A program made the translations under genes and the position numbers. Below the pieces are notes generated by a model. That model saw nothing but the letters and a program-made list of their open reading frames with translations, did no database searches and was not told the origin of the DNA. Shown here in pieces: positions 6,718-29,942 of a stretch of 64,000 bases of DNA (position 1 is its first letter; each line of letters begins with the position of its first letter). The stretch is from a bacterium (GTDB lineage Bacteria; 4484-113), in contig JAGGTK010000072.1 of the NCBI GenBank assembly GCA_021163765.1, forward strand, positions 6,072 through 70,071, given 5' to 3'.

Positions 6718-6737
6718 GGGCACAGCATGCTGTGCCC
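6718..6737 (+). terminator. Perfect 20-nt palindrome immediately after the ftsY stop (possible terminator hairpin; no clear U-tract)
   Basis: GGGCACAGCATGCTGTGCCC equals its own reverse complement. It is followed by GTTCCCC, so the T-run is weak. Confidence 0.35.
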
Positions 6738-6957
6738 GTTCCCCAATCACCATCGGTATTCCATCGAGTAAGTCACGTTCACCAGCCCGGCTTTTACTCT
6801 CCGCTGTGGCTCATCCGCAATCCCTCCCGCAAACGCGCGCACCTCGCGCTCATTGACGAGGGCGAATCCGTGGACAAATTCCTCATCGCTGTGGGAGCGA
6901 AAGAAGATCCGGGTACGTACTAGCTGTCAGGCGTCAGATTCCCAGCTCCGCTGATCG

Positions 6958-7071
6958 CTACCCCAGCGCCTGCTGCAAATCCGCGATGATGTCGGAAACG
7001 TCCTCCAATCCCACCGACAGGCGCAGCATTTCCGGCAGTATGCCGATGGCCCGCCGCTCGTCTTTCCCCCT
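6958..7071 (-). pseudogene. C-terminal remnant of a Cys/Met-metabolism PLP-dependent enzyme (MetB/MetC/MetY family)
   Basis: The minus strand reads [37 protein letters not shown], the canonical family C-terminus (RLSVG[IL]ED..D[IL]I.DL.QAL). There is no upstream ORF or start. Just upstream, another frame reads [13 protein letters not shown], consistent with frameshift decay. Confidence 0.6.
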
Positions 7072-7173
7072 CTGAGTACGCGGTGCTCACTAGCGCCGCT
7101 CTGAATCGCCGGGCTGGTGAGCCCGGCCTACCCGGTTAAGGGCCTTCCCCGACTACCCGCTACCATCCCCTGC

Positions 7174-8268
7174 CTATTCCAGCAACACATACTGCGTCGT
7201 GCGCTTCTTGGGCGTGAAGCCGGCGGCGGAAATCAAGCGGCGCAGTTCCGCTTCGGTCATTGAGTATGCAGTTCCCGCGGCGGCGACGACGTTTTCTTCG
7301 AGCATCGTGCCGCCCATGTCGTTTGCGCCGAAATAAAGCGCAAGCTGCCCCACCTTCGGCCCCATCGTCACCCACGACGCCTGTAAATTCGTGAAATTAT
7401 CCAGATACAGCCGCGCCACCGCAAGCGTGCGCAAATACTCCAACCCGCCCACGGCCGTGCCGCCCAGCGGCGTGTTCTCCGGCTGATAACTCCAGCAGAT
7501 AAACGCGGTGAAGCCCCCCGTTTCGTCCTGCAGCGCGCGGATGCGCTCCAGGTGCTCGATGCGCTCAGGATAAGTCTCCACGTGCCCGAACATCATCGTC
7601 GCCGTCGTGCGCATCCCCATCGCGTGCGCCTCCCGCATCACGCCAATCCATTCGTCGGCGGTGCACTTTCGCGGCGAAACTTCGCTGCGCACGCGGTCGG
7701 ATAAAATCTCCGCGCCGCCACCGGGCAGGCTGTCCAGCCCCGCATCGCGCAGTTTGGCTAGAACTTCGCGCACCGGCATCCCGAAAAGGGCGCTGAAATG
7801 CACAACTTCCGGCGGTGAGAACGAATGCAGCGTCGTTTCAGGAAAATCGCGCTTGATGCTGCGCAGCAACTCCAGGTACCACTCAAACGGCAGCGACGGA
7901 TGGTGCCCGCCCTGCATCAATATCTGCGTTGCGCCAAGCTCCACCGCCTCGGCGACCTTCGCCCTTATCACCGGCTCATATTCATTGATGTACGCGTCGT
8001 CGTCACCGATGTCGCGCGAAAACGCGCAGAAGCGGCAACGGCTTACACACACGTTTGTGTAATTGACATTTCGGTCGACGACATAGGTGACTATGCCGGG
8101 GTTTGCAACCTTCAGCCGCATCTCGTGCGCCGCGCTCCCCATCTTGTGGATGTCGCCCTTATGCAGCAGAAGTTCGCCTTCTTCGCGGCTCAGGCGTCCG
8201 CCGGCCAGCGGCTTTGCGCAAAGCCTTTCGGTTTCGTCGGGTGATAGGCTGCTTGGCTTATCCGACAT
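7174..8268 (-). CDS. mqnC: Radical SAM enzyme of the futalosine pathway, MqnC-like (cyclic dehypoxanthinyl futalosine synthase)
   Basis: 364 aa. CVSRCRFCAF radical-SAM cluster motif preceded by VDRNVNYTNVC. ILMQGGHHPSLPFEWY resembles the MqnC pattern as I recall it. The MqnC versus MqnE assignment is tentative. Confidence 0.7.
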   Translation of the reverse strand: MSDKPSSLSPDETERLCAKPLAGGRLSREEGELLLHKGDIHKMGSAAHEMRLKVANPGIVTYVVDRNVNYTNVCVSRCRFCAFSRDIGDDDAYINEYEPVIRAKVAEAVELGATQILMQGGHHPSLPFEWYLELLRSIKRDFPETTLHSFSPPEVVHFSALFGMPVREVLAKLRDAGLDSLPGGGAEILSDRVRSEVSPRKCTADEWIGVMREAHAMGMRTTATMMFGHVETYPERIEHLERIRALQDETGGFTAFICWSYQPENTPLGGTAVGGLEYLRTLAVARLYLDNFTNLQASWVTMGPKVGQLALYFGANDMGGTMLEENVVAAAGTAYSMTEAELRRLISAAGFTPKKRTTQYVLLE

Positions 8269-8273
8269 ACAGG

Positions 8274-9032
8274 TTACTTCGCAAGCCTGGCGAGCTTCAG
8301 TTTATGCACCTTCTGGCGGAAGAACTCGAGGAATTCCAGGTCGCGTGGCGACAGCCTGAAGTGCAGCGCCTTGCCGAAGTAGTCCACCAGCGCCTTGTGG
8401 CTCACCTGCCACTCCCGCTCCGCGAACTTGCACAGCCCGTCCCAGTCTTCCTCAACTCTGGCGTAGGCTTGCTCCAGTATCCCCACCAGCTCATCCGACA
8501 CCGGCTCGCTGCCCTGCCACATCGCGAATACAACCGGCAGCTTGAACAGCTCGTCGATCAGCGCCGCGATGTCATAGGCGTGATGATACGTGAACTGCGG
8601 ATGGAAGTTCTGGTCTCCGATGATAACGCGGCCGGTCTTGGGCTGTAGCTTCGCGCGAACGTCTCTGGCTGGCGTAAATTTTACGCGCTGCTGCCGTTCG
8701 TTGAAGATGATGCGGGTCAGCGCGTTGCTGGTCAGGCTGGCCGGATCCTCTTCAACCACGGTCACCTCATCCAGCGGGTCCTGCGAGTAAATCATCACTG
8801 TTATCACCCGGCCCTCGGCGGCTACGCCCAGGTCGGTGATCCGCGTGCGCAGCTTCGCGGCGTAGACGAACGACGAAGTCAGCGCCGCGTCGAGCTTCCC
8901 GTCCTGCATCAGGTGAAACAGCTCGGCCGGCATCCCCCACGTGGGTTTCACGCGCGGGTGGTCCTGCAGCCCGTGAACGAGCGGCAGCGCATTGAGAAAC
9001 GGCAATAGTCCAACTCTAAACTTCTTGGGCAT
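8274..9032 (-). CDS. mqnA: Chorismate dehydratase MqnA-like (periplasmic-binding-protein fold, menaquinone via futalosine)
   Basis: Likely start is ATG 9032 (MPKKFRVGLLPFLNALPLVHGL), the typical MqnA N-terminus. It lies between two Mqn radical SAM genes and overlaps the upstream gene end by 17 nt. Confidence 0.7.
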   Translation of the reverse strand: MPKKFRVGLLPFLNALPLVHGLQDHPRVKPTWGMPAELFHLMQDGKLDAALTSSFVYAAKLRTRITDLGVAAEGRVITVMIYSQDPLDEVTVVEEDPASLTSNALTRIIFNERQQRVKFTPARDVRAKLQPKTGRVIIGDQNFHPQFTYHHAYDIAALIDELFKLPVVFAMWQGSEPVSDELVGILEQAYARVEEDWDGLCKFAEREWQVSHKALVDYFGKALHFRLSPRDLEFLEFFRQKVHKLKLARLAK

Positions 9033-10131
9033 CTTCACCTGCCGGTTCGTATTCGCGCATATCCCGATAGAGCGCGTCGCGCACAACTGGTTTCAGCCCG
9101 GCGCCCCTAATAATACCAGCAAGCTCGCTAATGGTCACCCCTTTGGGCGCGCTTGCCCCTGCCGCATGATAGATAAGCTCACGCCCCACCGTGCCGTCCA
9201 TATCGTCCGCGCCCCAGAGAAGCATCACCTGCGCCAGCTTTAGCCCAAACTCCACCCAGTAGGCCTTGACGTGCGGGAAATTATGGAGCGCGATGCGCGA
9301 CGCAGCCAGATGGCGCAGATCCTCCACGCCGGTGGTGAACTCGCCACCCAGCCGGTTGCCCACCGGATGGTAAGCCAGAGGTATGAACGCCTGGAACCCT
9401 CCCGTCTCCGCCTGCAGGTCGTAAAGCTGGAGCAGATGCGCCGCCTTCTGCTCTGGCGTCTCAATATGACCATAAAGCATCGTCGCGTTCGTGGGTATCC
9501 CCAGCTCGTGTGCTGTTCGGTGCACCGAAAGCCATTCGCCTCCCGATATCTTGTCCGGGCAAATCCGCGAACGCACATCTTCCGCAAACACCTCCGCTCC
9601 TCCGCCCGGCATCGCGTCCAGTCCCGCTTTTTTCAGGTCAATGAGCGTGTCGCGCACGCTCATACCTGATAGCTCAGCCATCCACTCAAGCTCCACCGCA
9701 GTGAACGCCTTGAGCTGCACCTCCGGGAAGGCTTCCCGCAGCGCCGTGAGAATCCCCCGGAAGTATCCGTAATCCGCCATCTCGCGCGGCGGGATCGCCC
9801 CGACAATGTGGAATTCGCGCAGGCCCGCTACACCGTCAGTCTTCAGGCTTTCCACAATCTCATCCGGCTGGAGAAAGTAAGCATTGTCGTCCCCGGCGTC
9901 CGCGCTGAACGAGCAGAACAGGCAGCGGTTCCGGCAGACGTTCGTGTAATTTATATGCCGGTTCGCCACCACGTACGTGTTGTCGCCATGCAGCTTCGTG
10001 CGGACTTCGTGCGCCAGCCCGCCCAGCCAGTGGAGGTCGGCGTCAGCGAGCAGGAATGCGACTTCCTCCCGCGTCAGCCGCTCTTCGGAAAGGGCTTTTC
10101 GCTCGATTGCAGATTGAACGGAGTCCCGCAC
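9016..10131 (-). CDS. mqnE: Radical SAM enzyme of the futalosine pathway, MqnE-like (aminofutalosine synthase)
   Basis: 371 aa. NRHINYTNVCRNRCLFCSF cluster motif. REFHIVGAIPP resembles the MqnE HIVGG pattern as I recall it. Same operon as mqnA and mqnC. Confidence 0.65.
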   Translation of the reverse strand: MRDSVQSAIERKALSEERLTREEVAFLLADADLHWLGGLAHEVRTKLHGDNTYVVANRHINYTNVCRNRCLFCSFSADAGDDNAYFLQPDEIVESLKTDGVAGLREFHIVGAIPPREMADYGYFRGILTALREAFPEVQLKAFTAVELEWMAELSGMSVRDTLIDLKKAGLDAMPGGGAEVFAEDVRSRICPDKISGGEWLSVHRTAHELGIPTNATMLYGHIETPEQKAAHLLQLYDLQAETGGFQAFIPLAYHPVGNRLGGEFTTGVEDLRHLAASRIALHNFPHVKAYWVEFGLKLAQVMLLWGADDMDGTVGRELIYHAAGASAPKGVTISELAGIIRGAGLKPVVRDALYRDMREYEPAGEDAQEV

Positions 10132-10238
10132 CTGTCACTTATTCTATGCGACTTACACTCCCTCAACAAGCTTTATCCCCCGGCCATATTCGCTTCCGCT
10201 TATCTGCTATAATTGAGCTTCAGTCAGGAGGGACAACT

Positions 10239-11363
10239 ATGAAACTCACCATCTCCCAGGAAAAGTTGAGCCAGGCGCTCAACCTTGTCAGCAAGGCTGT
10301 CTCCAGCCGCACGCTGAACCTGGTTCTCGCACACATCCGGTTCCAGGTGACGAAGAAGAGCCTGACGCTCACCGGGTCGGACGGCGATTTCACGATCGAA
10401 CACACGGTCGACACCAAGGGAGAGCGTGAAGGCGCGCTGCTCGTGCCCGCACGGCTCTTCGTCGACCTTATCACGAGGCTGCCCAAGAAGGATATTACGC
10501 TGGAACGCCAGGACGGGATGCTAAAGATCACCAGCGGCTTCTCGGACTACTCCATCAACATCCTGCCCGACGAGAACTTCCCCAGCCTTCCGCTGTTTGA
10601 GGAAGGCAAGCTGGCGCAGCTTCCAGCCGGGCAGTTAAGAAGCGCCCTGGGGCGAACCACGTTCAGCGCGCTTAAAGACCCCAGCGGGACAACGAGCCAC
10701 TATACGCACGGCGTGCTGCTCAACTTCCACGAAGACAACCTCGACATCGTGGCCACAGACGGCCACCGCCTGGCGCTGGAGCGGATGGACAATCCCGCGC
10801 CGGAGATTAAGGACCGCAGCCTGCTGGTTCCCACAACCATCACCGAGGAGCTCAGGCGAGCCCTGCCTGACGAAGAAGACAAAACCGTAGAAATCTACTT
10901 CCTGAGCAACCAGGTGTTCTTCAAGTTTGACAACAGCGTCTTCGGCGGCTCGCTCTTTGATATAAAGTACCCTGATTACCTGAAGGTGGTACCCAAAGAA
11001 ACCAAATCCATCGCCAACGTAAACCGCAGCGCGCTGCGGGAGGCGCTTCAGCGCGTCCTGATTGTGTTCAAGGTAAAGGAGCAGAATCCGGTCGTCCGGC
11101 TGGAAACCAGCGGTGACAGCCTGATTATTTCAAGCGAGTCCCAGGATGTCGGCAAGGGCGTCGAGGAAATGCCGTTCACCCAGGGCTCGCCCTTCGCGGA
11201 CATGCGCATCGCTCTCAACCCCGCTTACCTGGCTGATGTCCTCGCGGTGGTGGACTCGGACACCGTTGACCTCCACTGGACGAGCGAAGTCAACCCGCTG
11301 AAGCTGGAACTTCCAGAGAAGCCCGGTTACACCTATATTGTGATGCCCATACGAATGGACTAG
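10239..11363 (+). CDS. dnaN: DNA polymerase III beta sliding clamp
   Basis: ATG 10239 is preceded by AGGAGGGA. MKLTISQEKLSQALNLVSKAVSSRT...LTGSDGD, 374 aa with the three-domain clamp length. The track ORF from 10056 is an upstream extension. Confidence 0.9.
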   Translation: MKLTISQEKLSQALNLVSKAVSSRTLNLVLAHIRFQVTKKSLTLTGSDGDFTIEHTVDTKGEREGALLVPARLFVDLITRLPKKDITLERQDGMLKITSGFSDYSINILPDENFPSLPLFEEGKLAQLPAGQLRSALGRTTFSALKDPSGTTSHYTHGVLLNFHEDNLDIVATDGHRLALERMDNPAPEIKDRSLLVPTTITEELRRALPDEEDKTVEIYFLSNQVFFKFDNSVFGGSLFDIKYPDYLKVVPKETKSIANVNRSALREALQRVLIVFKVKEQNPVVRLETSGDSLIISSESQDVGKGVEEMPFTQGSPFADMRIALNPAYLADVLAVVDSDTVDLHWTSEVNPLKLELPEKPGYTYIVMPIRMD

Positions 11364-11387
11364 ACACAGGCACATCTGCCCGGAGGG

Positions 11388-11855
11388 TTGGGCTCTGCCG
11401 GTAAAACCGAATTGCTGGTTCTTACTAGAAAACCTGGCGAACGTGTCTTAATCGGTCCCTCTATCAAGATGGAGTTTGTAGGCGTAGACGCGAAACACCG
11501 TGCCCGCCTGGGATTCTCCTCCATCCGGCACCTTAAACTGGTCTCTCCGGACATTTCGCTTGATTGCGATATGCCCTCAGGAAGCCCCGAAGCGCCGGTG
11601 AAACGCGACGTCACTCTCGCGGTCAACCAGAAGGTCATTGTGAACGGCGTGGTGGAGATTACGGTTGTCGCAGTGAAAGGCGAACAGGTGCGCGTCGGCC
11701 TGGAAGCCCCCGACGAAATCCACATCTTCCGCGAGGAAGTGCACGCCGAGATCCTTCAGGAGAGCATTCAGGTGGCCCAGAAGGAAAGCGAGCTCACCGG
11801 TGATGAGCTCCCACTCCCTTCCCTGGACCTTGAAGACGAGCCGCCCGCAGAGTAG
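11388..11855 (+). CDS. Tandem-domain CsrA/RsmA-like RNA-binding protein (two CsrA folds in one chain)
   Basis: Residues ~9-52, LLVLTRKPGERVLIGPSIKMEFVGVDAKHRARLGF, align to CsrA beta1-beta4. Residues ~75-122, VTLAVNQKVIVNGVVEITVVAVKGEQVRVGLEAPDEIHIFREEVHAEI, align to a full second CsrA. Start is uncertain: TTG 11388 or in-frame TTG 11412. Confidence 0.7.
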   Translation: MGSAGKTELLVLTRKPGERVLIGPSIKMEFVGVDAKHRARLGFSSIRHLKLVSPDISLDCDMPSGSPEAPVKRDVTLAVNQKVIVNGVVEITVVAVKGEQVRVGLEAPDEIHIFREEVHAEILQESIQVAQKESELTGDELPLPSLDLEDEPPAE

Positions 11856-11866
11856 CGCTCCCGAAT

Positions 11867-12463
11867 CTACCCAATCGCACCGAGCAAGCCCGGCAGCCCG
11901 CACTCCTTGAGCAGGCGGTCCAGCAGGTTCAGCGGCATTCCAACAACGTTGAAGTAATCGCCGCTTATCCCCTGCACCAGAACGCCGCCGACTCCCTGTA
12001 TCGCGTAAGAGCCAGCCTTGTCCATAACCTGGGCTTTCCCAATGTATATGTCCTCTTCCGCCGGCGTCAGCGAGCCAAACGTTACCTCGGTGCATTCCGC
12101 ATCACAGCGGCACTCGCTGCGGTAATGCACCGCAAGTCCCGTGACCACAAGATGCGTGCAGTCGTAAAGCTTGTGCAATGTGGCGCGGGCATCGTCCAGG
12201 CTGGCAGGCTTACCATAGATGCGCCCGTCGGCGTGCACAATCGTATCCGCGGAGATGACCACGACTTCGGGATGTAACCGCGCATAGCCCTCGCCCTTGC
12301 TGCGCGCGGCGTCGCACGCAAATCGAACCGCACCGTCTCTGTCAACCGGCTGAGAGTAACCAGGCGCGAAATCCGTCTCCGGGTCAATCGCCCTGAAGTT
12401 AAGCCCGATGCTTCGCAGAACCTCGCGGCGGCGCGGCGACCGTGATGCAAGTACTACTTCCAT
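11867..12463 (-). CDS. maf: Maf-like nucleoside triphosphate pyrophosphatase (septum formation protein)
   Basis: ATG 12463 gives MEVVLASRSPRRREVLRSIGLNF. The C-terminal YAIQG...GDYFNVVGMPL motif is typical of Maf. Confidence 0.85.
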   Translation of the reverse strand: MEVVLASRSPRRREVLRSIGLNFRAIDPETDFAPGYSQPVDRDGAVRFACDAARSKGEGYARLHPEVVVISADTIVHADGRIYGKPASLDDARATLHKLYDCTHLVVTGLAVHYRSECRCDAECTEVTFGSLTPAEEDIYIGKAQVMDKAGSYAIQGVGGVLVQGISGDYFNVVGMPLNLLDRLLKECGLPGLLGAIG

Positions 12464-12516
12464 AACTGCTATTATATGGGCTGGGCCGTCACAGTGCCCT
12501 CGACGAACGGTCACCG

Positions 12517-14469
12517 ATGAAACCGCAGGAACATTACGATTCCATCGTTATCGGCGCGGGTCACGCCGGATGCGAAGCCGCGCACGCCTGCGCCCGCCTG
12601 GGGCTGTCCACACTGCTGATAACCCTAAGGCTGGACACGGTCGCGCGCATGAGCTGCAATCCCAGCATCGGCGGTCCCGCCAAAGGTCACCTGACACGCG
12701 AGATAGATGCCATGGGCGGGGTGATGGGCGAAGTCATAGACCGCTCTTACATCAATTTGCGGTTGCTCAACACAGGGAAAGGCCCCGCCGTGCAGGCGCT
12801 CCGCGCACAGGCTGACCGGGCGCTTTACTCGCAGGTTATGCTCAGCCTGCTGCAAAACACTCCGAATCTGGCTCTGCTTGAGGGCGAAGTGGGCGAAATC
12901 CTCACCGAGCCTACGACCGATCCGCCGGGAGTGCGCGTGAAAGGCGTGCGGCTCACGGACGGCCGCGAGCTCTTCGCCCCCCGCTGCATCATCGCACCGG
13001 GAACGTTCCTTGCCGCAAAGCTGATGATAAGCGATGAAATCTGGGAAGGCGGGCGCTGGGGCGAGCCGGCGAGCAACGCTCTTTCCGCGAGCCTGCGCAA
13101 GCTGGGATTCCCGCTGGGGCGCCTTAAAACCGGCACCAGCCCCCGCCTGCACCGCGACAGCCTGGACTATACCGCGCTTTCGGTGCAGGTTTCAGAATGG
13201 CGGCACGACGCCTTCCGCTGCTACAGCGAGAGCGAAATTCCGCCGATGCTCCTTCCCTGCTGGCAGACCCGCACCGACGAGCGCACCGTGCGCTACATCG
13301 GCGATAACACTTCACTCTCGGCGCTTTACTCCGGGCACATAACCGGCGCCGGCCCCCGCTACTGCCCGTCCATCGAGGACAAAGTGCGCCGCTTCCCGGA
13401 CAACCTCTCGCATCCCGTATTCCTCGAACCCGACGGGCTGACGACGATGGAGGTTTACGTGCAGGGCCTGACCACCAGCCTGCCGGTTGAGGTGCAGCAG
13501 GGCTTCCTGAGCCGCACAAAGGGCCTCGAGCACGCGCGCATCCTGCGCCCCGGCTACGCCGTTGAATACGACTACCAGAATCCTGTCGAGCTGCACCCGC
13601 ACCTGGAAACCAAGCGCGTCGCGGGGCTCTACTTCGCGGGGCAGGTTAACGGCACAACGGGTTACGAAGAAGCCGGCGCGCAGGGGCTGGTGGCAGGCGC
13701 AAACGCCGCGCTGTCGCTGCTGGGACGTGACTTTCTGCCGCTCGCCCGCGACAATTCCTATACCGGCGTATTAATCGACAATCTGACCACGCTCGGCACA
13801 GAAGAGCCTTTCCGCATGTTCACCGCGTCCTGCGAATACCGCCTGCTGCTCCGCAGTGACAACGCCGCGCTGCGGTTGGGGGAAATGGCATACGACTGCG
13901 GGCTACTGCCCGAAAGCAAATTCGCCGTTCTGCGCGAGCTGAAGCGCCGCGTGCAGCTCTTCACGTCGGAGCTTGCAGCCGCGCGAACAGATGGTTGCGC
14001 CGAATCGCACGGGCTGGATTTGCCGCCGGGCTTTAAGGTACTCGATCTGGCGAAACGTCCTGAGGTCGACGAAAAGCAGTTCGCGGATTGCGCCCAAAGA
14101 GCGATTACCGGCAGCAACCAGGGCGTCAAGGAGAATAATATCCTCAGCGAAACCGCCCTGCGGCAGGTCTATATCGGCACAAAATACGCGGGCTACATAA
14201 AGCGGCAACAGGAAGAGGCGGCCCGGCTGCGCAAGTACGAGCGCATCAGGATACCGCTTGGGTTCGACTACGGCAGCGCGACTGGCGTCTCGTCAGAGGC
14301 GCGGGAGAAACTTGCGCTTGTGCAGCCAAAGACTCTGGGGCAGGCAACGCGCATTCCCGGCATCCGTCCCGCCGACATCGCCGCGCTAGCTATGGCGTTG
14401 CGGCGCCCAAAGCCCGCCGCTGAGGCGCGGTCTGCTAGAATAAGCACGTCCAGTCGGCGCAACCAATAG
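12517..14469 (+). CDS. mnmG: tRNA uridine 5-carboxymethylaminomethyl modification enzyme MnmG (GidA)
   Basis: 650 aa. FAD motif [16 protein letters not shown], with [25 protein letters not shown] and [15 protein letters not shown]. Confidence 0.95.
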
Positions 14470-14500
14470 GAGGAAAGGTAATGTTCTTCATGCGGTGGCT
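14422..14500 (+). repeat. Left copy of a diverged ~80-bp direct duplication (mnmG 3' end, intergenic region with SD, first codons of a small membrane-protein gene)
   Basis: GAGGCGCGGTCTGCTAGAAT...AGGAGG...ATGTTCTTCATGCGGTGGCT aligns with 16716-16795. That is 18 of 20 identical in the first block and ATGTTCTT plus TGCG.TGGCT in the last. This copy of the small ORF stops after 12 codons (MFFMRWLLYIAS*). Confidence 0.75.
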
Positions 14501-14697
14501 TCTCTACATCGCAAGCTGAGGCCGACAACCGTGGCGGCAATTGCAAAATAGGCCTCTTTCAGGTAATATTACTAATCGTCCCATGGGCAGGTGGGTTGCT
14601 CGTTTCTAGACCAAATAACTTTTGGTGTATTCACGGTGCATTTAATGCATGTGAAGCACTTCGGCATTGGCGTCTCAACTAAGGGGGAGATACCATT

Positions 14698-14898
14698 ATG
14701 AGCGAATCGACCAAGTCAGATGGAGAAGGGAAAGTGGCTATCGATCAGGTCTTGGAAAAACTGGAGAACTACCTCGATTCCAATGAAGCTCAAGAACGTC
14801 TTGAGCGTTACGCAAACACATTCGCGGAAAACACGAAGTCAATCGAAGAGCTGCGAGCCCTTGACCCGAAGCTGAGAAACTTGCGCATGACAATCTAG
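14698..14898 (+). CDS. Hypothetical small acidic, predicted all-helical protein (66 aa), first gene of islet 1
   Basis: ATG is preceded by AAGGGGGAGA (14681-14690). The DNA is AT-richer. Sequence MSESTKSDGEGKVAIDQVLEKLENYLDSNEAQERLERYANTFAENTKSIEELRALDPKLRNLRMTI has no recognisable family, no Cys and no GG leader. Confidence 0.55.
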   Translation: MSESTKSDGEGKVAIDQVLEKLENYLDSNEAQERLERYANTFAENTKSIEELRALDPKLRNLRMTI

Positions 14899-14932
14899 TA
14901 CCTGATCAATAACGTGAAGAGGTGGAACGTGG

Positions 14933-16624
14933 ATGACTGAGGTCACATCTGATGACCGGAACGTTTACGGATACACTATTGACAAGCTAGTAGAGCTCCT
15001 CAGCCGTCCTTTCTCCGAGGCATACGAGGAAATAGTTTGGAAGAAGTCACACATCAAATACTTCGAGGGCTATTTCGACAAACTCGACGCCAAAACCATC
15101 GTTGTTGAGTTAGAATACGTTGACAAGGATTTCATCGAGGACTACGCCAACTATTATGTGCGTTGCTTCGGCAGCATTAGGGATATTAGAGCAGCTTGTA
15201 CGCGCATCCACTTCTTCACAGGTAGTTTCAATGAGAAAGACTTCCTGACCTTTCTCCATTCGCCAGAGGAGTCAAACGACCAACTCCTCGGTGAATATCT
15301 TGGATTCGTGGTTGTCAAGCCACTCCCTGAGGCCATAATAGGTCGAACTTGCCTGAAAACGTATCCTAGAGAACAGGGCAGAACCTATCCTATCCTACGG
15401 TTGTACCGACCTTCGCTTCACGGTATTCAGCTAGAAGTTGAATCACTTGCCTTTCAGGAACAGGACACTGTGGCTGCTGCTTGCGCGACAACCTCTATTT
15501 GGTCTGCTTTCCACAAGACTTCCCAAGAATTTGAGCACGAACTACCTACCCCAGTTCGTATCACATCCAGAGCTACAGGCTCTGGAGACCGATCAAAAAG
15601 GGCTTTGCCATCTGAAGGCCTTCATGATGCAGAGATAGCCCGTGCGATAAGGTCTGTTGGGCTTGAAACTCATACGCTGCAGCTGAATTCGCCTTACCTC
15701 CCACACCGTTCTCCTGATCTTCTGAAAGCTATGGCCTACGCTTACACTAAAGGCCAGCTGCCTGCCATTCTCTGCGGTGCTCTAGTTCCTGATAATCCTG
15801 ACATCTTCCTGCAAAGCACCTTAGGCCTAGTCCCTGCTCAAGGCTATCACGCGCTGACTATCACGGGTTTTCGACTTGAAGGACAGCTAGAGTCTTGGTC
15901 CGACGACCGTCTCCCGGACCACAATGGTCTTATGCTCACTTCTTCAAGAACTAACAAGCTTTACGTACATGATGATCAAGTCGGTCCTTTCGCTAGAATG
16001 GAGTTCCTGTCTCCCAACAAGAGGATACACCTCAGCGAATGTGATACTAACAGCCCGCTAGCATGGACTCAGTTGTCATCTTCCTACTACTGGCCTACGC
16101 TCGACTGCTTTTCCTTGTTCGCTCCCCTCTATGCCATAGTGCCAGTCTATCATAAGATTCGGGTAGAGTTCCTAACAATCCTCGACGCAATCACCAAGGT
16201 TGATGGTCTATTGGAGAATGTTCGCCACGGAACGAATGATTACCCGATCGCTTCGCGATTAGAGTGGGACGTTTACCTGACCCGCACCCATGATTTCAAG
16301 GAGAGTATCCTTGCGCGTAAGGATCTATCCACGGAATGCCGCACGAAGATATTGCTGCGCAGCTTCCCGCGTTTCATGTGGAGATGTACCGGGAAGATAT
16401 CCGACGAGTCCATCATCGATGTTCTATTCGATGCGACAAGCTATAGGAGAGGTTATTTCTTCCACCACGCCCTATCCTATAATCCCCACCTGACAACAGT
16501 GCTACAAAAGTATGTAGGTCATAAAGCTACGCAAAACAGCCTATTAAACAAGGTCAGAGATCCGTGGTATGTGAAACTCATTGAGTTTATCGAGGGAGAA
16601 ATGCGGGAAGAGCTAACGGTATAG
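14933..16624 (+). CDS. Hypothetical 563-aa protein with a central papain-like (clan CA, C39-like/UCH-like) Cys-His-Asp motif order; N- and C-terminal regions unrecognised
   Basis: ATG is preceded by GAAGAGGTGGA. Motifs: FQEQDTVAAAC(184)ATTSIWSAF, QGYH(306)ALTITGF and KLYVHDD(347/348)QVGPF. The long clean ORF sits in AT-richer DNA with no competing ORF. Confidence 0.7.
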   Translation: MTEVTSDDRNVYGYTIDKLVELLSRPFSEAYEEIVWKKSHIKYFEGYFDKLDAKTIVVELEYVDKDFIEDYANYYVRCFGSIRDIRAACTRIHFFTGSFNEKDFLTFLHSPEESNDQLLGEYLGFVVVKPLPEAIIGRTCLKTYPREQGRTYPILRLYRPSLHGIQLEVESLAFQEQDTVAAACATTSIWSAFHKTSQEFEHELPTPVRITSRATGSGDRSKRALPSEGLHDAEIARAIRSVGLETHTLQLNSPYLPHRSPDLLKAMAYAYTKGQLPAILCGALVPDNPDIFLQSTLGLVPAQGYHALTITGFRLEGQLESWSDDRLPDHNGLMLTSSRTNKLYVHDDQVGPFARMEFLSPNKRIHLSECDTNSPLAWTQLSSSYYWPTLDCFSLFAPLYAIVPVYHKIRVEFLTILDAITKVDGLLENVRHGTNDYPIASRLEWDVYLTRTHDFKESILARKDLSTECRTKILLRSFPRFMWRCTGKISDESIIDVLFDATSYRRGYFFHHALSYNPHLTTVLQKYVGHKATQNSLLNKVRDPWYVKLIEFIEGEMREELTV

Positions 16625-16715
16625 CATTCGCATTGAGTACGGTTAGATTGTACGTATGAACAAATGAAGAGAAAGCCCGCAAATAGTAGATATATCGCCA
16701 GAGAGCTAACTGCGT

Positions 16716-16795
16716 GAAGCGCAGTCTGCTAGAATCAGTGTGTCGGGTAGCCGCGATTAATGGGAGGGTACAAAGATGTTCTTTTTGCGATGGCT
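16716..16795 (+). repeat. Right copy of the diverged ~80-bp duplication (pseudo-3' end of mnmG plus the true start of the small membrane-protein gene)
   Basis: GAAGCGCAGTCTGCTAGAAT...GGGAGGG...ATGTTCTTTTTGCGATGGCT. In the mnmG-equivalent frame it reads EAQSARISVCRVAAING, against [15 protein letters not shown] in the real gene. Confidence 0.75.
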
Positions 16796-16961
16796 AATAG
16801 GCGCTGTAGTGGCACTCGCCATCTGTGCGGCCGGCTTCGCTCTCGTCCAGCACTTGATGAAAGTTCATCCTGACGGAGTGATGGTGGCGTCGGTTTCGAG
16901 TATCGTGACTTCTATAGCTGCGGTATTCGCGCTGTTCCCCCGGAAGAAAAAGAAGACCTAG
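16776..16961 (+). CDS. Small membrane protein (61 aa, two hydrophobic segments, lysine-rich tail)
   Basis: MFFLRWLIGAVVALAICAAGFALVQHL...IVTSIAAVFALFPRKKKKT, with SD GGGAGGG upstream. A truncated paralogous start sits at 14481. Confidence 0.5.
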   Translation: MFFLRWLIGAVVALAICAAGFALVQHLMKVHPDGVMVASVSSIVTSIAAVFALFPRKKKKT

Positions 16962-18367
16962 CTGTCCCCTGCGCGTGCCGCAGCCAGAACCACCTTAAGC
17001 AGCACACCGTCCTGCTCCGGGAGAACGGCCCGAAGGTCCAGCAGCAGCCTGTCTTCACGCACAATCGCCAGCACCGCCGGCCGGTTCTGGCGCAATGCAC
17101 GCGCGATGTCCTCCGGCGAAGAGCCCTCGGCGCTCATAGCAACAGCATACGACGCGACCCTCCGCCCCGCCACGCCGCCGCCGACTTCCGCTTCAGTCTC
17201 TATGACCTCCACGCTCAATCCCGCTTTGCGCAACTTGCGTGCCAGCACGAACGCGCGGTTCTTCAGGTCGTCAGGCTCGGTTCTCAGCAACGCGTTTACC
17301 GGTATCGCGTCAGCTTCTCCCGCTGCAATCAATGAAAGCCCTGCTTCGATGACCGAGAGCAGTGACTTGTCGGGCCTGAGCACGCGGTAGAGCGGGGACT
17401 TGCGCAGGCGTTCTGTGAGCTCACGCTGCCCCAGTATGATGCCGCCCTGGGTCAGGCCCAGCGCCTTGTCGGCGGAAAAGCACACCAGGTCCGCGCCCGC
17501 CCTCAGCGAAGGCGCCGGATGCGGCAGGTCGAGCTTGTTGGCTTCCGCTTCGGCCATCAGCGTTGCCGCCCCGATGTCCTCGATAAGCAGCACGCCGCTC
17601 GCGCGGGCAACCGGCGCAAGTTCTTCCACCCCGGCTTCGGCGACGAACCCGACCATCTCGAAGTTGCTCCGGTGCGCCTTCATAATGGCGGCAGTGTTCT
17701 CGTTCAGCGCGCTCTCATAGTCCGCGAGATGGGTCTGGTTGGTCGTGCCCACCTCGCGCAGTATCGCGCCGCTTTCGGCGATGATGTCCGGGATGCGGAA
17801 ACCGCCGCCGATTTGTATCAGCTCGCCTCGCGAAATGACCACCTCGCGCCCGGCGCAGAGCGCATGCAGGATGAGAAACACCGCGCCGGCGTTGTTGTTC
17901 ACCAATAGCGCGCCTTCCGCGCCCGAAAGCGCGCAAAGCAGCCGTTCGATCTCCGCGCCCCGCTTGCCGCGCCGTCCGGTCTCCAGCTCGTATTCCAGGT
18001 TCGAATATCCCGTCAGCACCGGCCGCACTGCGTCCAGCAGCCGTTCCCCCAGTGGCGAGCGCCCTAGGTTCGTATGCACGATAATGCCGGTGGCGTTGAT
18101 TACCGGCTGCAGCTTGCGCAGCGCCATATGGCGCAGGCTTCCCGCGATGGCGTCCACGACCAGCTCGCGCAGCGCCGCTTCGGACAGCGGTTCGCCATCC
18201 TCCACCCGGTCGCTGCGAAAGATGTTGAGCACGGCTTCGGCGCTGCACTTGATATCGGCGCTGGTCAGCCCAAGTCCGGTTGCGAGCGCACTAAGCGCCT
18301 TGTCGTCCAGCAGGCTGCTTACGCTCGGCAGGTCCCGCAACTGGAAGTTATATCCACCCTCCACCAT
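16958..18367 (-). CDS. selA: L-seryl-tRNA(Sec) selenium transferase
   Basis: 469 aa. N-terminal LRDLPSVSSLL, then VINATGIIVHTNLGRSPL, and the PLP-lysine region FSADKALGLTQGGIILG. Confidence 0.88.
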   Translation of the reverse strand: MVEGGYNFQLRDLPSVSSLLDDKALSALATGLGLTSADIKCSAEAVLNIFRSDRVEDGEPLSEAALRELVVDAIAGSLRHMALRKLQPVINATGIIVHTNLGRSPLGERLLDAVRPVLTGYSNLEYELETGRRGKRGAEIERLLCALSGAEGALLVNNNAGAVFLILHALCAGREVVISRGELIQIGGGFRIPDIIAESGAILREVGTTNQTHLADYESALNENTAAIMKAHRSNFEMVGFVAEAGVEELAPVARASGVLLIEDIGAATLMAEAEANKLDLPHPAPSLRAGADLVCFSADKALGLTQGGIILGQRELTERLRKSPLYRVLRPDKSLLSVIEAGLSLIAAGEADAIPVNALLRTEPDDLKNRAFVLARKLRKAGLSVEVIETEAEVGGGVAGRRVASYAVAMSAEGSSPEDIARALRQNRPAVLAIVREDRLLLDLRAVLPEQDGVLLKVVLAAARAGDS

Positions 18368-18400
18368 CGGGGGTGATTGTAGCAGAGAGACAGCGCACAG

Positions 18401-19846
18401 GTGATTCCCTATGGTATATTCCCAGCGATGGGTGGATTTGCCTTTGCGCTGAAGACTTTCGGCTGCCAGATGAACGTCGCCGACGACGACGCGCTGGCGC
18501 GGGAACTTGCGGCGCGCGGCGGGGTGCAGGTCACCGACGCCACCGCCGCCGACCTCATCGTCATCAACACGTGCGTCGTGCGCCAGAAAGCCGAGGACAA
18601 GGCGTTTTCCTTCGTCGGCTCGCTAAAGCCGCTCACCGAGGGCAAACCCCCAACGCATCCGGTAAAGCTCAGCGCGCCCAAGCTGCTCGCCCAGAGCGAC
18701 AATCCCGCGCGCACGCGCTCCCGCCCGCTTATCGCAGTCGTCGGATGCCTGGTGCCAAAGAGCGGCGAGGAGCTTGCACGCAAATTCGGCTACGTAGACC
18801 TCCTCGTGCCCACCAGCGAGCCGGCACAGGTCATCGCCGCGCTTTCGGAAGCAATGCCGCTTCCGCAGCCATCCGAAGCAGCGTCCTCGTCATTCTCCGC
18901 GCCCAGCCCGCAGCTCGCCGTAAGCTGCACCGCCGCTGCCGGCGGAAGCGACGAGCTGCGGCTTGACACGAAACTCAGCGGGCTCGTGACGGTGCAGCGC
19001 GGATGCAACCATGCCTGCAGCTTCTGCATCGTGCCGCAGGTGCGCGGGCCGGAGGTAAGCGTGCCCGTCAGCCAAATCGTCGACGAGGCCAACTACTACC
19101 ACCGCCAGGGCTTCAACGAAGTCACACTGCTGGGGCAAAACGTGCTCTCGTACGGCAGCGACCTGGGTTTCAGCCCGGATTTCGCGGAGATGATAGAGGC
19201 GGTGCTGGAGCGCACTGAAGTTCCCTGGATCTCATTCCTCACCTCGCAGCCCCACGATATGAGCAAGGAGATAATCCGGCGCGTCATCGCCCACCCGCGC
19301 GTCACGCCGCTGCTCCACCTGCCCGTGCAGTCCGGCAGCAACGCGGTGCTTCAACGAATGCGGCGGGGATACACCGTCGAGGCGTATGAAGACTGGATCG
19401 TGGCGGTGCGGGACGCGAGACCCGACGTTTTCCTCACAACCGACTTCATCGTCGGCTTTCCCGGCGAGACGGAGCGCGACTTCGAGCTGACGCTGGCGCT
19501 CATAGAGCATGTTCGCTTCAACGACGCGTTTATGTTCGCATATTCGCCGCGCGAGGGCACTGCCGCCGCAGCGTATGACGGCCAGGTCGACCTCGCAGAG
19601 CGCAAGCGCCGCCTCGCCGCGCTCATCAAGCTGCAGCGAAGCGTCGCGCACCAAATCAATACGAAATACGTTGGACAGGTACTCGACGCCATCGTCGAAC
19701 AGGCGGGCGAAAGGCAGGCCGTCGCGCGCACGCCGTTCAACAAGCCGGTCGTGCTGCCGCGTACCTCCCGCAAGCCGGGTGAGTTCACGAAGGTGCGCAT
19801 CACGCAGGCGGTCGTTTCAAGCTTCAAGGGCGAGGAGGTAGCGTGA
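18401..19846 (+). CDS. miaB: MiaB-family tRNA methylthiotransferase (radical SAM, UPF0004 N-domain plus TRAM)
   Basis: FALKTFGCQMNVAD...VINTCVVR N-terminal cluster, radical SAM CNHACSFCIVP, and a C-terminal TRAM-like GEFTKVRITQAV. A low-complexity insertion lies between the N-domain and the core. MiaB versus MtaB/RimO is not resolved. Confidence 0.75.
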   Translation: MIPYGIFPAMGGFAFALKTFGCQMNVADDDALARELAARGGVQVTDATAADLIVINTCVVRQKAEDKAFSFVGSLKPLTEGKPPTHPVKLSAPKLLAQSDNPARTRSRPLIAVVGCLVPKSGEELARKFGYVDLLVPTSEPAQVIAALSEAMPLPQPSEAASSSFSAPSPQLAVSCTAAAGGSDELRLDTKLSGLVTVQRGCNHACSFCIVPQVRGPEVSVPVSQIVDEANYYHRQGFNEVTLLGQNVLSYGSDLGFSPDFAEMIEAVLERTEVPWISFLTSQPHDMSKEIIRRVIAHPRVTPLLHLPVQSGSNAVLQRMRRGYTVEAYEDWIVAVRDARPDVFLTTDFIVGFPGETERDFELTLALIEHVRFNDAFMFAYSPREGTAAAAYDGQVDLAERKRRLAALIKLQRSVAHQINTKYVGQVLDAIVEQAGERQAVARTPFNKPVVLPRTSRKPGEFTKVRITQAVVSSFKGEEVA

Positions 19847-21285
19847 GCCGGTGCTTCATCCTTCTTAGGTACACCGTCCTTGCGCTGGCGGCATTTGCGT
19901 TTTTCATTTTCGCACCCGCCGGGCGCCCGCAGGAAAACATGCTGAATTACGCCCGTCGGCAAATCGACACGCTCACCGAATTCGACCTCACCGAGCTTGG
20001 CGCTGTGCCATCGCACATACTTTTTCCGCAGGTGCCAACTACGGACACCGGCTTCACCCATAACCTGAAGCAGCGCCGCGTAATCTGCGTCCTGCCCGGC
20101 GACGAAATGCACGTCTTTGAGGCAATCACCTTGCGAACACTGGACTCGCTCGTCGACGACAACATCGCGCAGGTGCGCGACGAACTTGAAAACATCAACA
20201 CGCTTGCCAACCGGCGCGACAAGCTCACCTCCCAAATGGATGAGCGCGCAGGCCTGCTGGACGACTTGCTGGGCGCTCTTCGCAGGCAACGCGGCGGTTC
20301 TCCTGGCGACCAGTCGCGCCAGTGGTGCCGCGCCGCAGCTGCGTTTGCGCTCGAGCAGGCAAAGGGCGAGCGGGAGCTGGTGCGCCTGGAGGTGGACAGC
20401 AAGCGGCAGTCGGTTCTGTACCAGATTTCGCGGCTGAACCTCTCCGCGGTGCTGAACACGGCAACCACCGGAGAAGACCTTTCACTGCTATCGCTCCGCG
20501 ACCCCGAAATTATCAACCGGCAGCTTATAGCGCTGCTCACAGACGAGTCCGTGGACATCGCCGCCCGGCTGCGAACACCCGCAGACGAACTTGCCGCGCT
20601 GCATCTGCGCGAAGGGCGGCTGGTCACTGAGGTATTCGGGTTGGCCGAGGATACGGACGCCGGGGCGGTGCTGGAATCTATAGCCAGCGGTGATTCCGCC
20701 GCTGTGGGCGCGGTTCTGGAGTCGCCGAGCCGGTTCGCTGAACTCATCGAAGTCGAGACGGGACTCGCAACAGCAAGTGCACGCGAGAGAGAGCTCGGCG
20801 CACTGCTCGTTGAAGTGAACGCCACGCGCGGGGAAATGATGCGCCACGGTGTGCACCTTTCGGCAATCCAGCGTGTCACCGTCAGCCCGCGCGAGTTCGA
20901 CGTGCCCCGGCTGTCGCGGACGCAGCTTAAATCGCTTTCGAACGCGAAGCAGTGGGAACTCGGCCAGTGGAGCGTGTTCCTGCGCAGCCTTGCCGCGAGC
21001 TTCGGCACAGCCGGAGGGCGAGCGGTCAGCATCCCTCCGCCGCAGGGAGTCTTCAGCGGCCCGAAACGCATCCGGCTGTCGCCCAACGAAGTCCCTGCAT
21101 TCCTGGCAGCCGTTTCGCAGCTACCCTCAAGCGACTACGACCGCATCGCCGAGCTTCTGGAGCTGGCCTCGTCGGAATACGCGAGCGCTGTAGCGGCGGG
21201 CGGCGAAGAAGCGGCGTTCTGGGAGTTCATCAGTTACTTTTTGCAGGACACGGCGCGCCGGGGGCTCACGTCTGCCAGCGGTTAG
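19843..21285 (+). CDS. Hypothetical membrane-anchored or secreted coiled-coil protein (480 aa)
   Basis: The start overlaps the miaB stop (GTGA). It has an N-terminal hydrophobic segment (LRYTVLALAAFAFFIFAPAG) and plausible helical composition. The 379-aa ORF on the opposite strand is S/R-rich and looks like a GC shadow. Confidence 0.5.
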   Translation: MSRCFILLRYTVLALAAFAFFIFAPAGRPQENMLNYARRQIDTLTEFDLTELGAVPSHILFPQVPTTDTGFTHNLKQRRVICVLPGDEMHVFEAITLRTLDSLVDDNIAQVRDELENINTLANRRDKLTSQMDERAGLLDDLLGALRRQRGGSPGDQSRQWCRAAAAFALEQAKGERELVRLEVDSKRQSVLYQISRLNLSAVLNTATTGEDLSLLSLRDPEIINRQLIALLTDESVDIAARLRTPADELAALHLREGRLVTEVFGLAEDTDAGAVLESIASGDSAAVGAVLESPSRFAELIEVETGLATASARERELGALLVEVNATRGEMMRHGVHLSAIQRVTVSPREFDVPRLSRTQLKSLSNAKQWELGQWSVFLRSLAASFGTAGGRAVSIPPPQGVFSGPKRIRLSPNEVPAFLAAVSQLPSSDYDRIAELLELASSEYASAVAAGGEEAAFWEFISYFLQDTARRGLTSASG

Positions 21286-21315
21286 AACTGCGCGCCTTCG
21301 AGCGCCGACTGGCAG
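21283..21315 (+). repeat. Left copy of a perfect 33-bp direct repeat flanking the higB/higA-immA cassette
   Basis: TAGAACTGCGCGCCTTCGAGCGCCGACTGGCAG is identical to 22891-22923. Its reverse complement encodes CQSALEGAQF*, duplicating the mtnP C-terminus. Confidence 0.95.
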
Positions 21316-29733: not shown

Positions 29734-29942
29734 TTTATCCCCTAACTCTTCATTCTCGCCCAGGAATAGCCCATGTGGAAGTTCGCATTGGATAGCTCAG
29801 TAGGAATATATTAAAGCAATACAGACAACACCAGGCAAACCTTCTGTTGGCTGACAAATAGAAAATATCATTGGAGGGAACTAATTTAAAGGGAATGCTT
29901 GTATAAAACGCTGTATAATGATATTATTCTCTAAGGAATATC

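Follow-up and report, generated by a model that had tools for sequence, protein, structure and literature searches.

A two-gene peptidase cassette without a recombinase gene at the end of mnmG, bounded by two unequal copies of a direct repeat

The window analyzed here is a 64,000-nt stretch of contig JAGGTK010000072.1 from a bacterium of the GTDB lineage 4484-113. Herein, two genes lie between mnmG and a small membrane-protein gene, and a related segment of about 80 bp is found at both ends of this islet. The locus thereby raises the question of how a cassette that encodes no integrase came to sit at a gene 3′ end between direct repeats. Tyrosine-integrase islands target tRNA, tmRNA, or gene 3′ ends. 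The preliminary description of the locus had proposed that foreign DNA entered at the mnmG terminus and that one repeat copy arrived with it from a related lineage.

The two segments, 14421-14500 and 16715-16795, align locally with a score of 49, as compared with 14.7±2.0 (maximum 23) for 500 shuffles, which bears out the claim of a duplicated segment of about 80 bp bounding the islet and separates it from the shuffled controls that had been proposed as a check. The next-best match to the repeat elsewhere in the window, on both strands, scores 27; the pair is the top direct-repeat family of the window in a repeat search, and the 80/81-bp repeat has only two copies in the whole genome. In a global alignment, 60 of 84 columns are identical and 7 are gap columns, so that the earlier by-eye estimate of two-thirds identity was roughly right, if slightly low. 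Both near-identical blocks are present as they had been described. The region 14300-16900 is identical in three contigs from independent assemblies, and the two-copy structure is no assembly artefact. Sliding GC, one of the checks suggested beforehand, drops from ~0.62 outside to 0.45–0.50 between the copies (insert 0.48, genome 0.58), and the other, the tetranucleotide distance of the insert to the genome, is 0.419; random segments of the same length give 0.247±0.061, and 2.5% of them attain 0.419. The cassette measures ~2.2–2.3 kb (2.29 kb if 14442-16714 is taken together with the shared block) and contains two ORFs. The features of the locus are as follows.

12517..14469, + strand: mnmG, 650 aa; native to ~14420, with the final ~16 codons and stop codon coming from the imported left copy
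14421..14500, + strand: left, imported repeat copy; orthologue-like promoter, 5′ UTR, ribosome-binding site, and first 7–8 codons of the 61-aa gene
14421..14441, + strand: block 1, the junction region with the putative second extended −10 TGCTAGAAT (14433-14441); 19/21 identical between the copies
14481..14519, + strand: 12-codon stump of the donor's 61-aa gene, MFFMRWLLYIAS and stop, as read from the sequence
14501..14697, + strand: non-coding cassette leader, GC 0.46–0.49
14698..14898, + strand: gene of a 66-aa small helical protein, a conserved partner upstream of the peptidase gene
14933..16624, + strand: gene of a 563-aa multidomain protein with a predicted papain-like (clan CA) cysteine-peptidase core, from invariant residues and Foldseek
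16625..16714, + strand: right non-coding cassette arm, low GC
16715..16795, + strand: right, native repeat copy; dead mnmG tail EAQSARISVSGSRD and stop (16716-16760), putative extended −10 (16727-16735), ribosome-binding site, and 61-aa start
16776..16961, + strand: native 61-aa membrane-protein gene, intact; its product is 90–93% identical to those of G001 and G002
16958..18367, − strand: selA, the native right flank (Pfam SelA, 4e-110), syntenic in G001

MnmG matches the Pfam families GIDA, GIDA_C_1st, and SAM_GIDA_C, with the last domain ending at residue 624. Restoration of mnmG needs no similarity past the end of that gene. As had been reported from the bare sequence, the functional mnmG stop codon (TAG, 14467-14469) and the 12-codon stump lie in the left copy, and the right copy leads into the intact membrane-protein gene at 16776-16961. 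A dead mnmG-like tail is indeed present in the right copy, albeit with a different reading, namely, the one listed above instead of EAQSARISVCRV. Past 14500, no similarity to the native 61-aa gene was found. The leader (14501-14697) contains no ORF with a family match and shows no similarity to the native locus, and the right arm (16625-16714) is homologous to neither mnmG nor G001.

The insertion becomes evident from G001 and G002, two sister species of the same genus, in which mnmG is directly followed by the 61-aa gene with one repeat copy. In both species, this one copy aligns with each of the two copies of the window; in G001, it lies at C12:130356-130436. The comparison with related genomes, which had been named as the way to find the empty site, thus provides it in two species, and together with the composition of the insert, it upholds the insertion of foreign DNA at the mnmG end. 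The right copy is identical to G001 in 74/82 positions (90%) and to G002 in 65/81 (80%), whereas the left copy reaches only 56/85 and 58/87 (66–67%) and has states from outside the genus: CGCGGTCTGCTAGAATAAG is common to the left copy and G004, which belongs to another genus of the same family, and its MFFM start is common to G003, G007, and G008. By this comparison, the right copy is native and the left one imported, resembling other genera of the same family, in agreement with the suspicion that one copy came with the incoming DNA from a related lineage. The 61-aa gene was found in 8/8 other family genomes searched, none of which showed a related element at this site. No donor genome was found; among at least 1627 homologues of the 563-aa cargo protein, the best is 43% identical.

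Both junctions can be placed closely. In a sliding three-way comparison, the present genome (G000) stays closest to G001 up to the interval 14343-14432, and homology to G001 resumes exactly at 16715. As native mnmG extends to ~14420 and native homology starts at 16715, both joints lie in the same 21 nt in target coordinates. This stretch is block 1, which reads TGA[G/A]GCGC[G/A]GTCTGCTAGAAT; at its two SNPs, the left copy has G,G, whereas the right copy and G001 have A,A. Block 1 probably contains the extended −10 promoter TGCTAGAAT of the downstream 61-aa gene, and block 2, ATGTTCTT..TGCG.TGGCT, is the ribosome-binding site and the start codons of that gene. A −10-like motif (TCTGCTA[A/G]AAT, TGTGCTAGAAT, TGTGATAGAAT, or TCTGTTAGAAT) is located ~40–55 nt upstream of the 61-aa gene in 7/8 other family genomes; the exception is G005, with a different TATAAT box at this place. 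The repeat is more aptly viewed as the 61-aa gene's promoter together with its 5′ region, overlapping the mnmG tail; its conserved blocks seem to reflect the function of that gene's own promoter and start. The block-1 copy at 14433-14441 is oriented into the cargo.

The cargo belongs to a large family. A small ORF on the same strand is listed upstream in 76/80 loci homologous to the cargo, and the C terminus of most of these ORFs conforms to the pattern [RQ]xDPxxLxxP[FI]T[LIV]-stop. The 66-aa protein has no significant match in Pfam, NCBIfam, or PADLOC, and the 563-aa protein has no Pfam domain. In the family of the latter, Q175, C184, H306, D347, and D348 are invariant. Its AF2 model has a pLDDT of 81.6, and the top Foldseek matches are staphopain, C39 peptidase domains, and UfSP, with probabilities of 0.89–1.0 at whole-query TM scores of only 0.17–0.24. 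The model and the invariant residues point to a papain-like fold with the Gln/Cys/His/Asp-or-Asn catalytic set by which clan CA is recognized. The family thus far carries no name and is predicted to comprise peptidases; the module, in which a small-protein gene precedes one for a papain-like peptidase, is widespread and typical of defence islands.

Mobility functions were searched for in the insert and in the genome. Between 14501 and 16714, no integrase, transposase, or phage family or remnant was found among the ORFs or by Pfam, NCBIfam, and PADLOC, as the preliminary description had said for integrases and transposases, and the insert has no terminal inverted repeats and no tRNA. As it stands, the cassette thus has no integrase gene next to an att site, as an integrase-encoding genomic island would, and its 80-bp repeat and its lack of both transposase and terminal inverted repeats set it apart from a transposon or insertion sequence, whose target duplication is short (under ~15 bp). 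In the assembled genome (78.6% complete), the recombinases found are limited to a tyrosine recombinase of the Xer type and a resolvase fragment of 139 aa.

The reading we prefer, with about an even chance, is a Campbell-type integration of a circular cassette that carried a patch of host sequence and no recombinase gene. Herein, the cassette (promoter leader, 66-aa gene, and 563-aa peptidase gene) would have entered the species after its split from the sister species, already equipped with a patch of ~80 bp comprising the 61-aa promoter, the 5′ UTR, the ribosome-binding site, and the first ~8 codons. The patch donor would be another genus of the same family, and since the patch derives from the donor's 61-aa gene, the cassette probably adjoined this gene there. 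One reciprocal crossover between the circle and the chromosome would have occurred inside the 21-nt block TGARGCGCRGTCTGCTAGAAT, the putative extended −10 of the membrane gene embedded in the mnmG tail. In the structure as it is now, mnmG closes with the imported tail, the cargo lies behind the imported copy of the putative promoter, and the native tail, promoter, and membrane gene have been pushed intact to the right. That both joints fall into the same 21 nt is predicted by one crossover and not by two independent joints. A candidate agent is a site-specific recombinase acting in trans, as in the microcin H47 island or in CIMEs; alternatively, host recombination may have acted on 12–17 nt of identity. 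The block-1 SNPs would put the crossover in the first 3–8 nt instead of the 12-nt identical core, a position that would be awkward for homology-driven recombination and with which two separate joints or a later gene conversion would also agree.

Two further places repeat this architecture and polarity, namely, a toxin–antitoxin islet and a 5S rRNA end. The toxin–antitoxin islet lies 7 kb away, with a perfect 33-bp repeat, and its site is empty in G001 and G002. In another clade, the same two-gene module is bounded by a 75-bp repeat at the 5S rRNA end (L096); L096 and L099 have the module flanked equally tightly by locus-specific repeats, and other cargos are found at the same 5S end in G054, G050, and G059. 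A terminator ending in ...TTGCTTT is present in the gene-distal copies of G042, G050, and G054 and at the empty site of G045, and the 5S-adjacent copies of G042, G050, and G054 are devoid of it. For G042, the one 5S-site islet for which similarity to G045 was computed, the far copy matches G045 in 77/96 positions and the near copy in 70/97. G001-specific islets at neighboring sites show no flanking repeats, so the repeat-bounded route is not the sole way of islet gain in the genus.

Three other histories have to be weighed against the single crossover. The cassette may be what is left of a larger island or prophage that inserted by attP × attB recombination and lost its integrase by internal deletion, i.e., a CIME by decay in place. 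Integrase-made islands are classically recognized by repeats that restore a gene 3′ end, CIMEs are known to keep att sites after losing their integration genes (PMC5704250), the module of one homologous locus (L016) lies 3 kb from a phage-type integrase, and five viral contigs of IMG/VR encode relatives of the peptidase. We nevertheless regard this history as unlikely: the cassette is very compact, its non-coding DNA amounting to 197 bp and 90 bp, and it contains no remnants of genes; L096 and L099 have the module enclosed just as closely by their repeats, and it is improbable that decay would have arrived at one minimal content independently; the identity blocks coincide with a putative promoter and a start region that are conserved for a function of their own; and no integrase beyond the Xer type is found in the assembled genome. 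Quite unlikely, in our estimate, is a linear donor fragment, taken up for example by transformation, that was joined at two separate points, through short homology at the promoter block on the left and illegitimately on the right, immediately ahead of the block that the recipient already had, either in a manner akin to homology-facilitated illegitimate recombination (HFIR) or by double crossover. Such a history accommodates three observations: the left copy clearly stems from orthologous DNA of a donor, the block-1 SNPs fit a right joint at the very edge of homology, and the start of the repeat inside the 5S gene shifts between cargos (positions ~46–56 in G054, G050, and G059, and ~89 in G042). 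However, two independent joints would have had to hit the same 21 target nucleotides, mnmG shows no detectable donor tract on the left side of the block, and the joint 16714|16715 displays no evident microhomology. The sequence found closest to the left copy is of the G004 type; it lacks homology left of the block because the membrane gene follows ppdK, not mnmG, in G004.

Finally, the structure might be older than the species or have arisen in place, either as a local tandem duplication that diverged or as a cassette of the genus ancestor that was precisely lost from G001 and G002. Deletion from repeat to repeat restores a clean single copy, so such losses would be scarless. [quoted passage not shown] This history is very improbable.

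With integration of a patch-carrying circle as the preferred reading, the closest known systems can be compared. The locus is a real and fairly ordinary case of a recurring kind of insertion, and repeat-bounded islets without integrase have been described since 2000. In "insertion with long target duplication," segments of <20 kb without mobility gene are bounded by direct repeats of >30 bp, with an empty single-copy site in a relative (PMC2853133; Nobusato et al. 2000, Gene 259:99). Some of these repeats overlap a gene 3′ end, as do the 46-bp repeats in H. influenzae; the cargo is restriction–modification, the copies are near-identical to the target (45/46, 47/47), and the mechanism is not established in the literature (PMC2853133). 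The present locus shares the >30-bp repeat, which is unique to the site, the empty site in a relative, the size of <20 kb, and the absence of transposase, integrase, and phage genes. It differs in its peptidase module and in that the gene-adjacent copy is demonstrably imported, at ~66% to the target (right 74/82, left 56/85 vs G001). Strictly, the repeat here is no duplication of the recipient's own target. The 13-kb microcin H47 island of E. coli has no integrase, is bounded by extensive imperfect direct repeats, recombines in short segments of identity between them with functions provided in trans, and shows RecA-independent excision and integration (PMC3191183). Both islands are small, without integrase, and with imperfect direct repeats, whereas mobility was proven experimentally for the 13-kb island and the present cassette is known from its sequence. 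CIMEs of streptococcal ICE/IME families are decay products of known elements with a cognate integrase that have lost their integration genes and kept attL and attR (PMC5704250). Likewise, integration and transfer genes are lacking here, and repeats that may be comparable to attL and attR lie at a conserved gene 3′ end; their identity blocks coincide with a putative promoter and a start region. In contrast, no parent element or cognate integrase was found in the 78.6%-complete genome, and the cassette looks like a minimal unit and not a wreck. With tyrosine-integrase islands, it has in common that the element gives a replacement 3′ end to the target gene and that direct repeats bound the insert. 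Unlike them, it has no integrase gene, and the imported similarity extends into the next gene, past its ribosome-binding site and over its first 8 codons.

The locus is informative because its two copies differ, with the gene-adjacent copy being the incoming one; their divergence suggests another genus of the same family as the source, and both joints fall into one 21-nt block that probably serves the downstream gene as its promoter. That this polarity returns at the 5S rRNA hotspot with three different cargos suggests that a rule may hold across genomes. As a tentative and rather doubtful generalization, small defence or toxin cassettes may spread by a general route without a recombinase of their own, using a host-derived "homology patch," which reproduces a conserved promoter or gene end of the cassette's previous host, and one crossover at 10–70 nt of identity carried out by host or housekeeping activity. 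If so, the imported copy would always come to lie next to the gene, with the native copy at a greater distance, the polarity of the present locus and of the 5S rRNA hotspot would be the footprint of this route, and the long-unsolved "insertion with long target duplication" would be explained as well. At the locus itself, mnmG now closes with foreign codons, and a second copy of the putative promoter faces the cargo.

Islet 1 is a low-GC cassette that follows mnmG and is bounded by two diverged copies of an ~80-bp direct repeat. The window corresponds to contig C2 of the source genome (G000), and the features of the islet are arranged as follows.

14421-14500, left repeat copy, spanning the mnmG 3′ end
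14698-14898, + strand, gene of 66 aa
14933-16624, + strand, gene of a 563-aa papain-like peptidase
16715-16795, right repeat copy, followed by the native 61-aa membrane gene and selA

The two copies align with a local score of 49, as compared with a mean of 14.7 (SD 2.0, maximum 23) for 500 shuffles and a score of 27 for the highest-scoring unrelated position anywhere in the window, both strands included. They are also the top direct-repeat family of the window in a repeat search; hence, the paired segments recognized by eye in the preliminary description are real. Aligned globally, the copies share 60 identities in 84 columns. The two near-identical blocks, the 12-codon stump in the left copy, and the intact 61-aa gene in the right copy are all found as previously described, but the dead mnmG-like tail of the right copy had been misread and is in fact EAQSARISVSGSRD*. 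Between the copies, the GC content drops from ~0.62 to 0.45-0.50. The tetranucleotide distance of the islet to the genome is 0.419, a value reached by 2.5% of random segments (0.247 ± 0.061). Islet 1 is thus atypical on both measures of composition, which had been proposed beforehand as a check. The region is identical in three contigs from independent assemblies, which rules out an assembly artefact.

The corresponding site is empty in both same-genus sister species, G001 and G002, as the proposal of an insertion at this position had led one to look for. Window positions 6956-14500 align to G001 C12:122848-130436, and positions 16715-18386 align to C12:130356-132028. The same 81 bp (C12:130356-130436) therein serve both flank alignments, so G001 has one repeat copy and no insert. 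Three-way identities yield the topology ((G000,G001),G002), under which a single gain in G000 is more parsimonious than two precise losses. By this comparison of genomes, islet 1 is an insertion.

The two copies differ in their relation to the empty sites. The right copy is identical to G001 at 74/82 positions and to G002 at 65/81. The left copy reaches only 56/85 and 58/87, respectively, which is below the identity between G001 and G002 themselves (64/84). Although the left copy supplies the functional mnmG tail, it has diverged much further than the dead tail on the right, which rules out divergence in place. From these identities, it is the left copy that was imported. The preliminary interpretation, namely that foreign DNA was inserted at the mnmG terminus and that one copy arrived with it, is therefore supported overall.

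The repeat itself can be described in terms of the membrane gene, which is found in all eight other family genomes searched. Block 1 (GTCTGCTAGAAT) has an extended −10 promoter form, TGnTAGAAT, and a similar motif lies ~40-55 nt 5′ of the 61-aa start codon in seven of these eight genomes; G005 has a different box, TATAAT. Block 2 corresponds to the ribosome-binding site and the conserved start MFF(M/L)(K/R)WL, as seen in the alignment upstream of the 61-aa gene. The blocks probably work as promoter and start region of this gene. If they are functional, their similarity is kept by function and does not show a role as a recombinase core. In G004, a more distant family genome, the membrane gene comes after ppdK instead of mnmG and the promoter block is still present; hence, the block belongs to the membrane gene. 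The left copy and G004 have the 19-mer CGCGGTCTGCTAGAATAAG in common, and the MFFM start of the left copy also occurs in G003, G007, and G008. The imported copy thus looks like the 5′ region of the membrane gene from a family-level relative, ending after ~8 codons, which suggests that the cassette sat at or inside the membrane gene in its previous host. The predicted extended −10 of the 61-aa gene (TGCTAGAAT, 16727-16735) sits within the last mnmG codons, and most of the family (G001-G004 and G006-G008) has a similar −10 motif 5′ of this gene.

Both joints can be placed closely. On the right, homology to G001 starts exactly at 16715, and the preceding eight bases match at 0/8 positions. On the left, mnmG keeps its native topology through the comparison window 14343-14432, and from 14442 on, the left copy clearly departs from the native sequence. 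Position 14429 is already G in the left copy, as in G004, but A in G001 and the right copy. Expressed in target coordinates, the two joints accordingly lie within the 21-nt block 1. Alignment scores at shuffle level were obtained in the search for a decayed remainder of the donor membrane gene beyond 14500 and for mnmG-like sequence left of 16715. The native extended −10 form remains 5′ of the membrane gene, and the imported one (14433-14441), a predicted promoter, would now point through the stump into the cargo. A consensus promoter scan of the cassette leader gave no site at threshold.

The favored mechanism is the integration of a circular cassette that would carry the ~80-bp patch and enter the chromosome by one reciprocal crossover between circle and chromosome, i.e., a Campbell-type insertion, within block 1. 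A single crossover of this type is favored because both joints fall at the same 21 nt. A linear fragment joined at two independent points would need luck, as its two joints would coincide in the same 21 nt only by chance. The identity between the copies in block 1 comprises 12 uninterrupted nucleotides, or 19/21, which is short for RecA-dependent recombination. Two SNPs in block 1 would put the exchange at the extreme left of the block. This pattern would fit a site-specific enzyme, two separate joints, as a linear fragment would produce, or later gene conversion. No tract of conventional homologous recombination with an anchor in mnmG was seen; a sliding comparison with the sister genomes detects no donor tract inside mnmG. 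The cassette contains no recombinase gene, terminal inverted repeats, or tRNA, and the only recombinases seen in the 78.6%-complete genome are a 295-aa Xer-type protein and a 139-aa resolvase fragment. A metagenome scan with ATGTTCTTNNTGCGNTGGCT for donor-like junctions returned at least 120 stretches, all chance matches and none like the locus. Searches for a donor or a nearer relative of the cargo gave a best homologue of only 43% identity, and the identical cargo protein was found in the same genomic context only.

Similar architectures occur elsewhere. Seven kilobases from islet 1, a higB/higA-immA cassette is flanked by a perfect 33-bp direct repeat (21283-21315 and 22891-22923) that spans the stop codon of a 480-aa ORF and the last codons of mtnP. 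It is absent from G001 and G002, each of which has one repeat copy, and it gives the window a second islet that is bounded by repeats and lacks an integrase. A shared core of the repeats of both islets was rejected, since it consists of the pentamer TAGAA only and is insignificant by eye. In a genome from another clade, the same two-gene module follows a 5S rRNA gene (locus L096, 5583-7789) between two copies of a locus-unique 75-bp repeat, each made up of the 29-nt 3′ end of 5S and a terminator. Among relatives of this genome, G054 (L244) and G050 (L245) contain two lipoprotein-like genes and G059 (L246) one 179-aa gene at the same 5S end, with repeats of 65-114 bp around these other cargos; the site is empty in G045 (L247). 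The 5S rRNA 3′ end is an insertion hotspot in this clade, with three different small cargos in four genomes. The repeats include the terminator in three of the four. In G042, G050, and G054 (three of four), the copy farther from 5S has the …TTGCTTT terminator ending of the empty site in G045, and the copy adjoining 5S has a different terminator. In G042, for which the similarity to G045 was computed, the far copy matches at 77/96 positions and the near copy at 70/97. The polarity is the same as in the window. In a Gastranaerophilales genome (L099), the same module plus a 94-aa membrane ORF lies between 87-bp locus-specific intergenic repeats (5157-5243 and 7722-7806) and adjoins an XRE/ImmA-like gene.

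Islet 1 belongs to a known, mechanistically unsolved kind. It is closest to insertion with long target duplication (Nobusato 2000; Furuta 2010, PMC2853133), in which small units without mobility genes are flanked by repeats of >30 bp, the empty site has just one copy, and no mechanism is established in the literature (PMC2853133). The published examples contain restriction-modification genes, with both repeat copies matching the target (PMC2853133), whereas in islet 1 one copy is imported, so that it departs from the kind in a defining feature. The microcin H47 island, whose imperfect repeats are extensive and exchange within short stretches of identity, with the recombination functions acting in trans (PMC3191183), is the best functional analogue. 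CIMEs (PMC5704250) resemble islet 1 in form, but a parent element was not found for it. Because its diverged copies show polarity and joint position, islet 1 is more informative than most of its kind.

The two cargo proteins have no significant match in Pfam, NCBIfam, or PADLOC. The 563-aa protein has at least 1627 homologues in many phyla, with 35-43% identity among the best listed, and Q175, C184, H306, and D347/D348 are invariant in the family. An AlphaFold model from 34 sequences (pLDDT 81.6) has its best PDB matches in staphopain, C39 peptidase domains, and UfSP, all of which are papain-like cysteine peptidases; a PDB sequence search with the family profile gave nothing relevant. In 76 of 80 loci, the peptidase gene is immediately preceded on the same strand by a small ORF. 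The majority of these ORFs (window 14698-14898; L020-L099) carry, directly before the stop, a conserved C-terminal pattern like [RQ]xDPxxLxxP[FI]T[LIV], which might be a peptidase substrate or inhibitor tail. Staphopain and its small inhibitor staphostatin are likewise encoded by an adjacent gene pair, a possible functional analogy that implies no membership. Neighbors of the module at other loci include a TIR protein, a restriction system with an Mrr-type nuclease, SymE, and an integrase. Distant peptidase relatives are present in four plasmid records and on five IMG/VR viral contigs, and the phage genome collection yielded no match. The gene pair is read as a putative defence-type or toxin–antitoxin-type module.

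Islets and repeats of other kinds occur as well. Two G001-specific islets near the site of islet 1 have no flanking repeats.

Window 6675-6956, G001:C12:118247-122848, 4.6 kb, HD-domain-like protein
Window 18386-18409, G001:C12:132028-134769, 2.7 kb, DNA methyltransferase and 287-aa protein, between selA and miaB

In a genome-wide screen, low-GC segments were checked for flanking repeats. The matches on contigs C30 and C35 were rejected as target duplications, being paralogous genes, and so was a 42-bp repeat on C10, which is a REP-like element dispersed in many copies. This REP-like repeat is ~45-60 bp long with the core GAGTACGCGGTGCTCACCAGCGCCGCTCCTAA and is found at window 7074-7132 and at G000:C10:27963-28004 and 29809-29850. 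It has ~10 copies in G000 and >40 matches in G001, and its copies edge variable islets, including the site occupied by the 4.6-kb islet in G001 and a gene-poor stretch in G000. G000:C30:5093-9472 is a tandem paralogue array with a repeated unit of ~340-380 bp, composed of a gene 3′ end (...ILYELRDGEV...AEDM*), an intergenic promoter region, and the beginning of the gene that follows. The array looks like the duplication of a two-gene unit.
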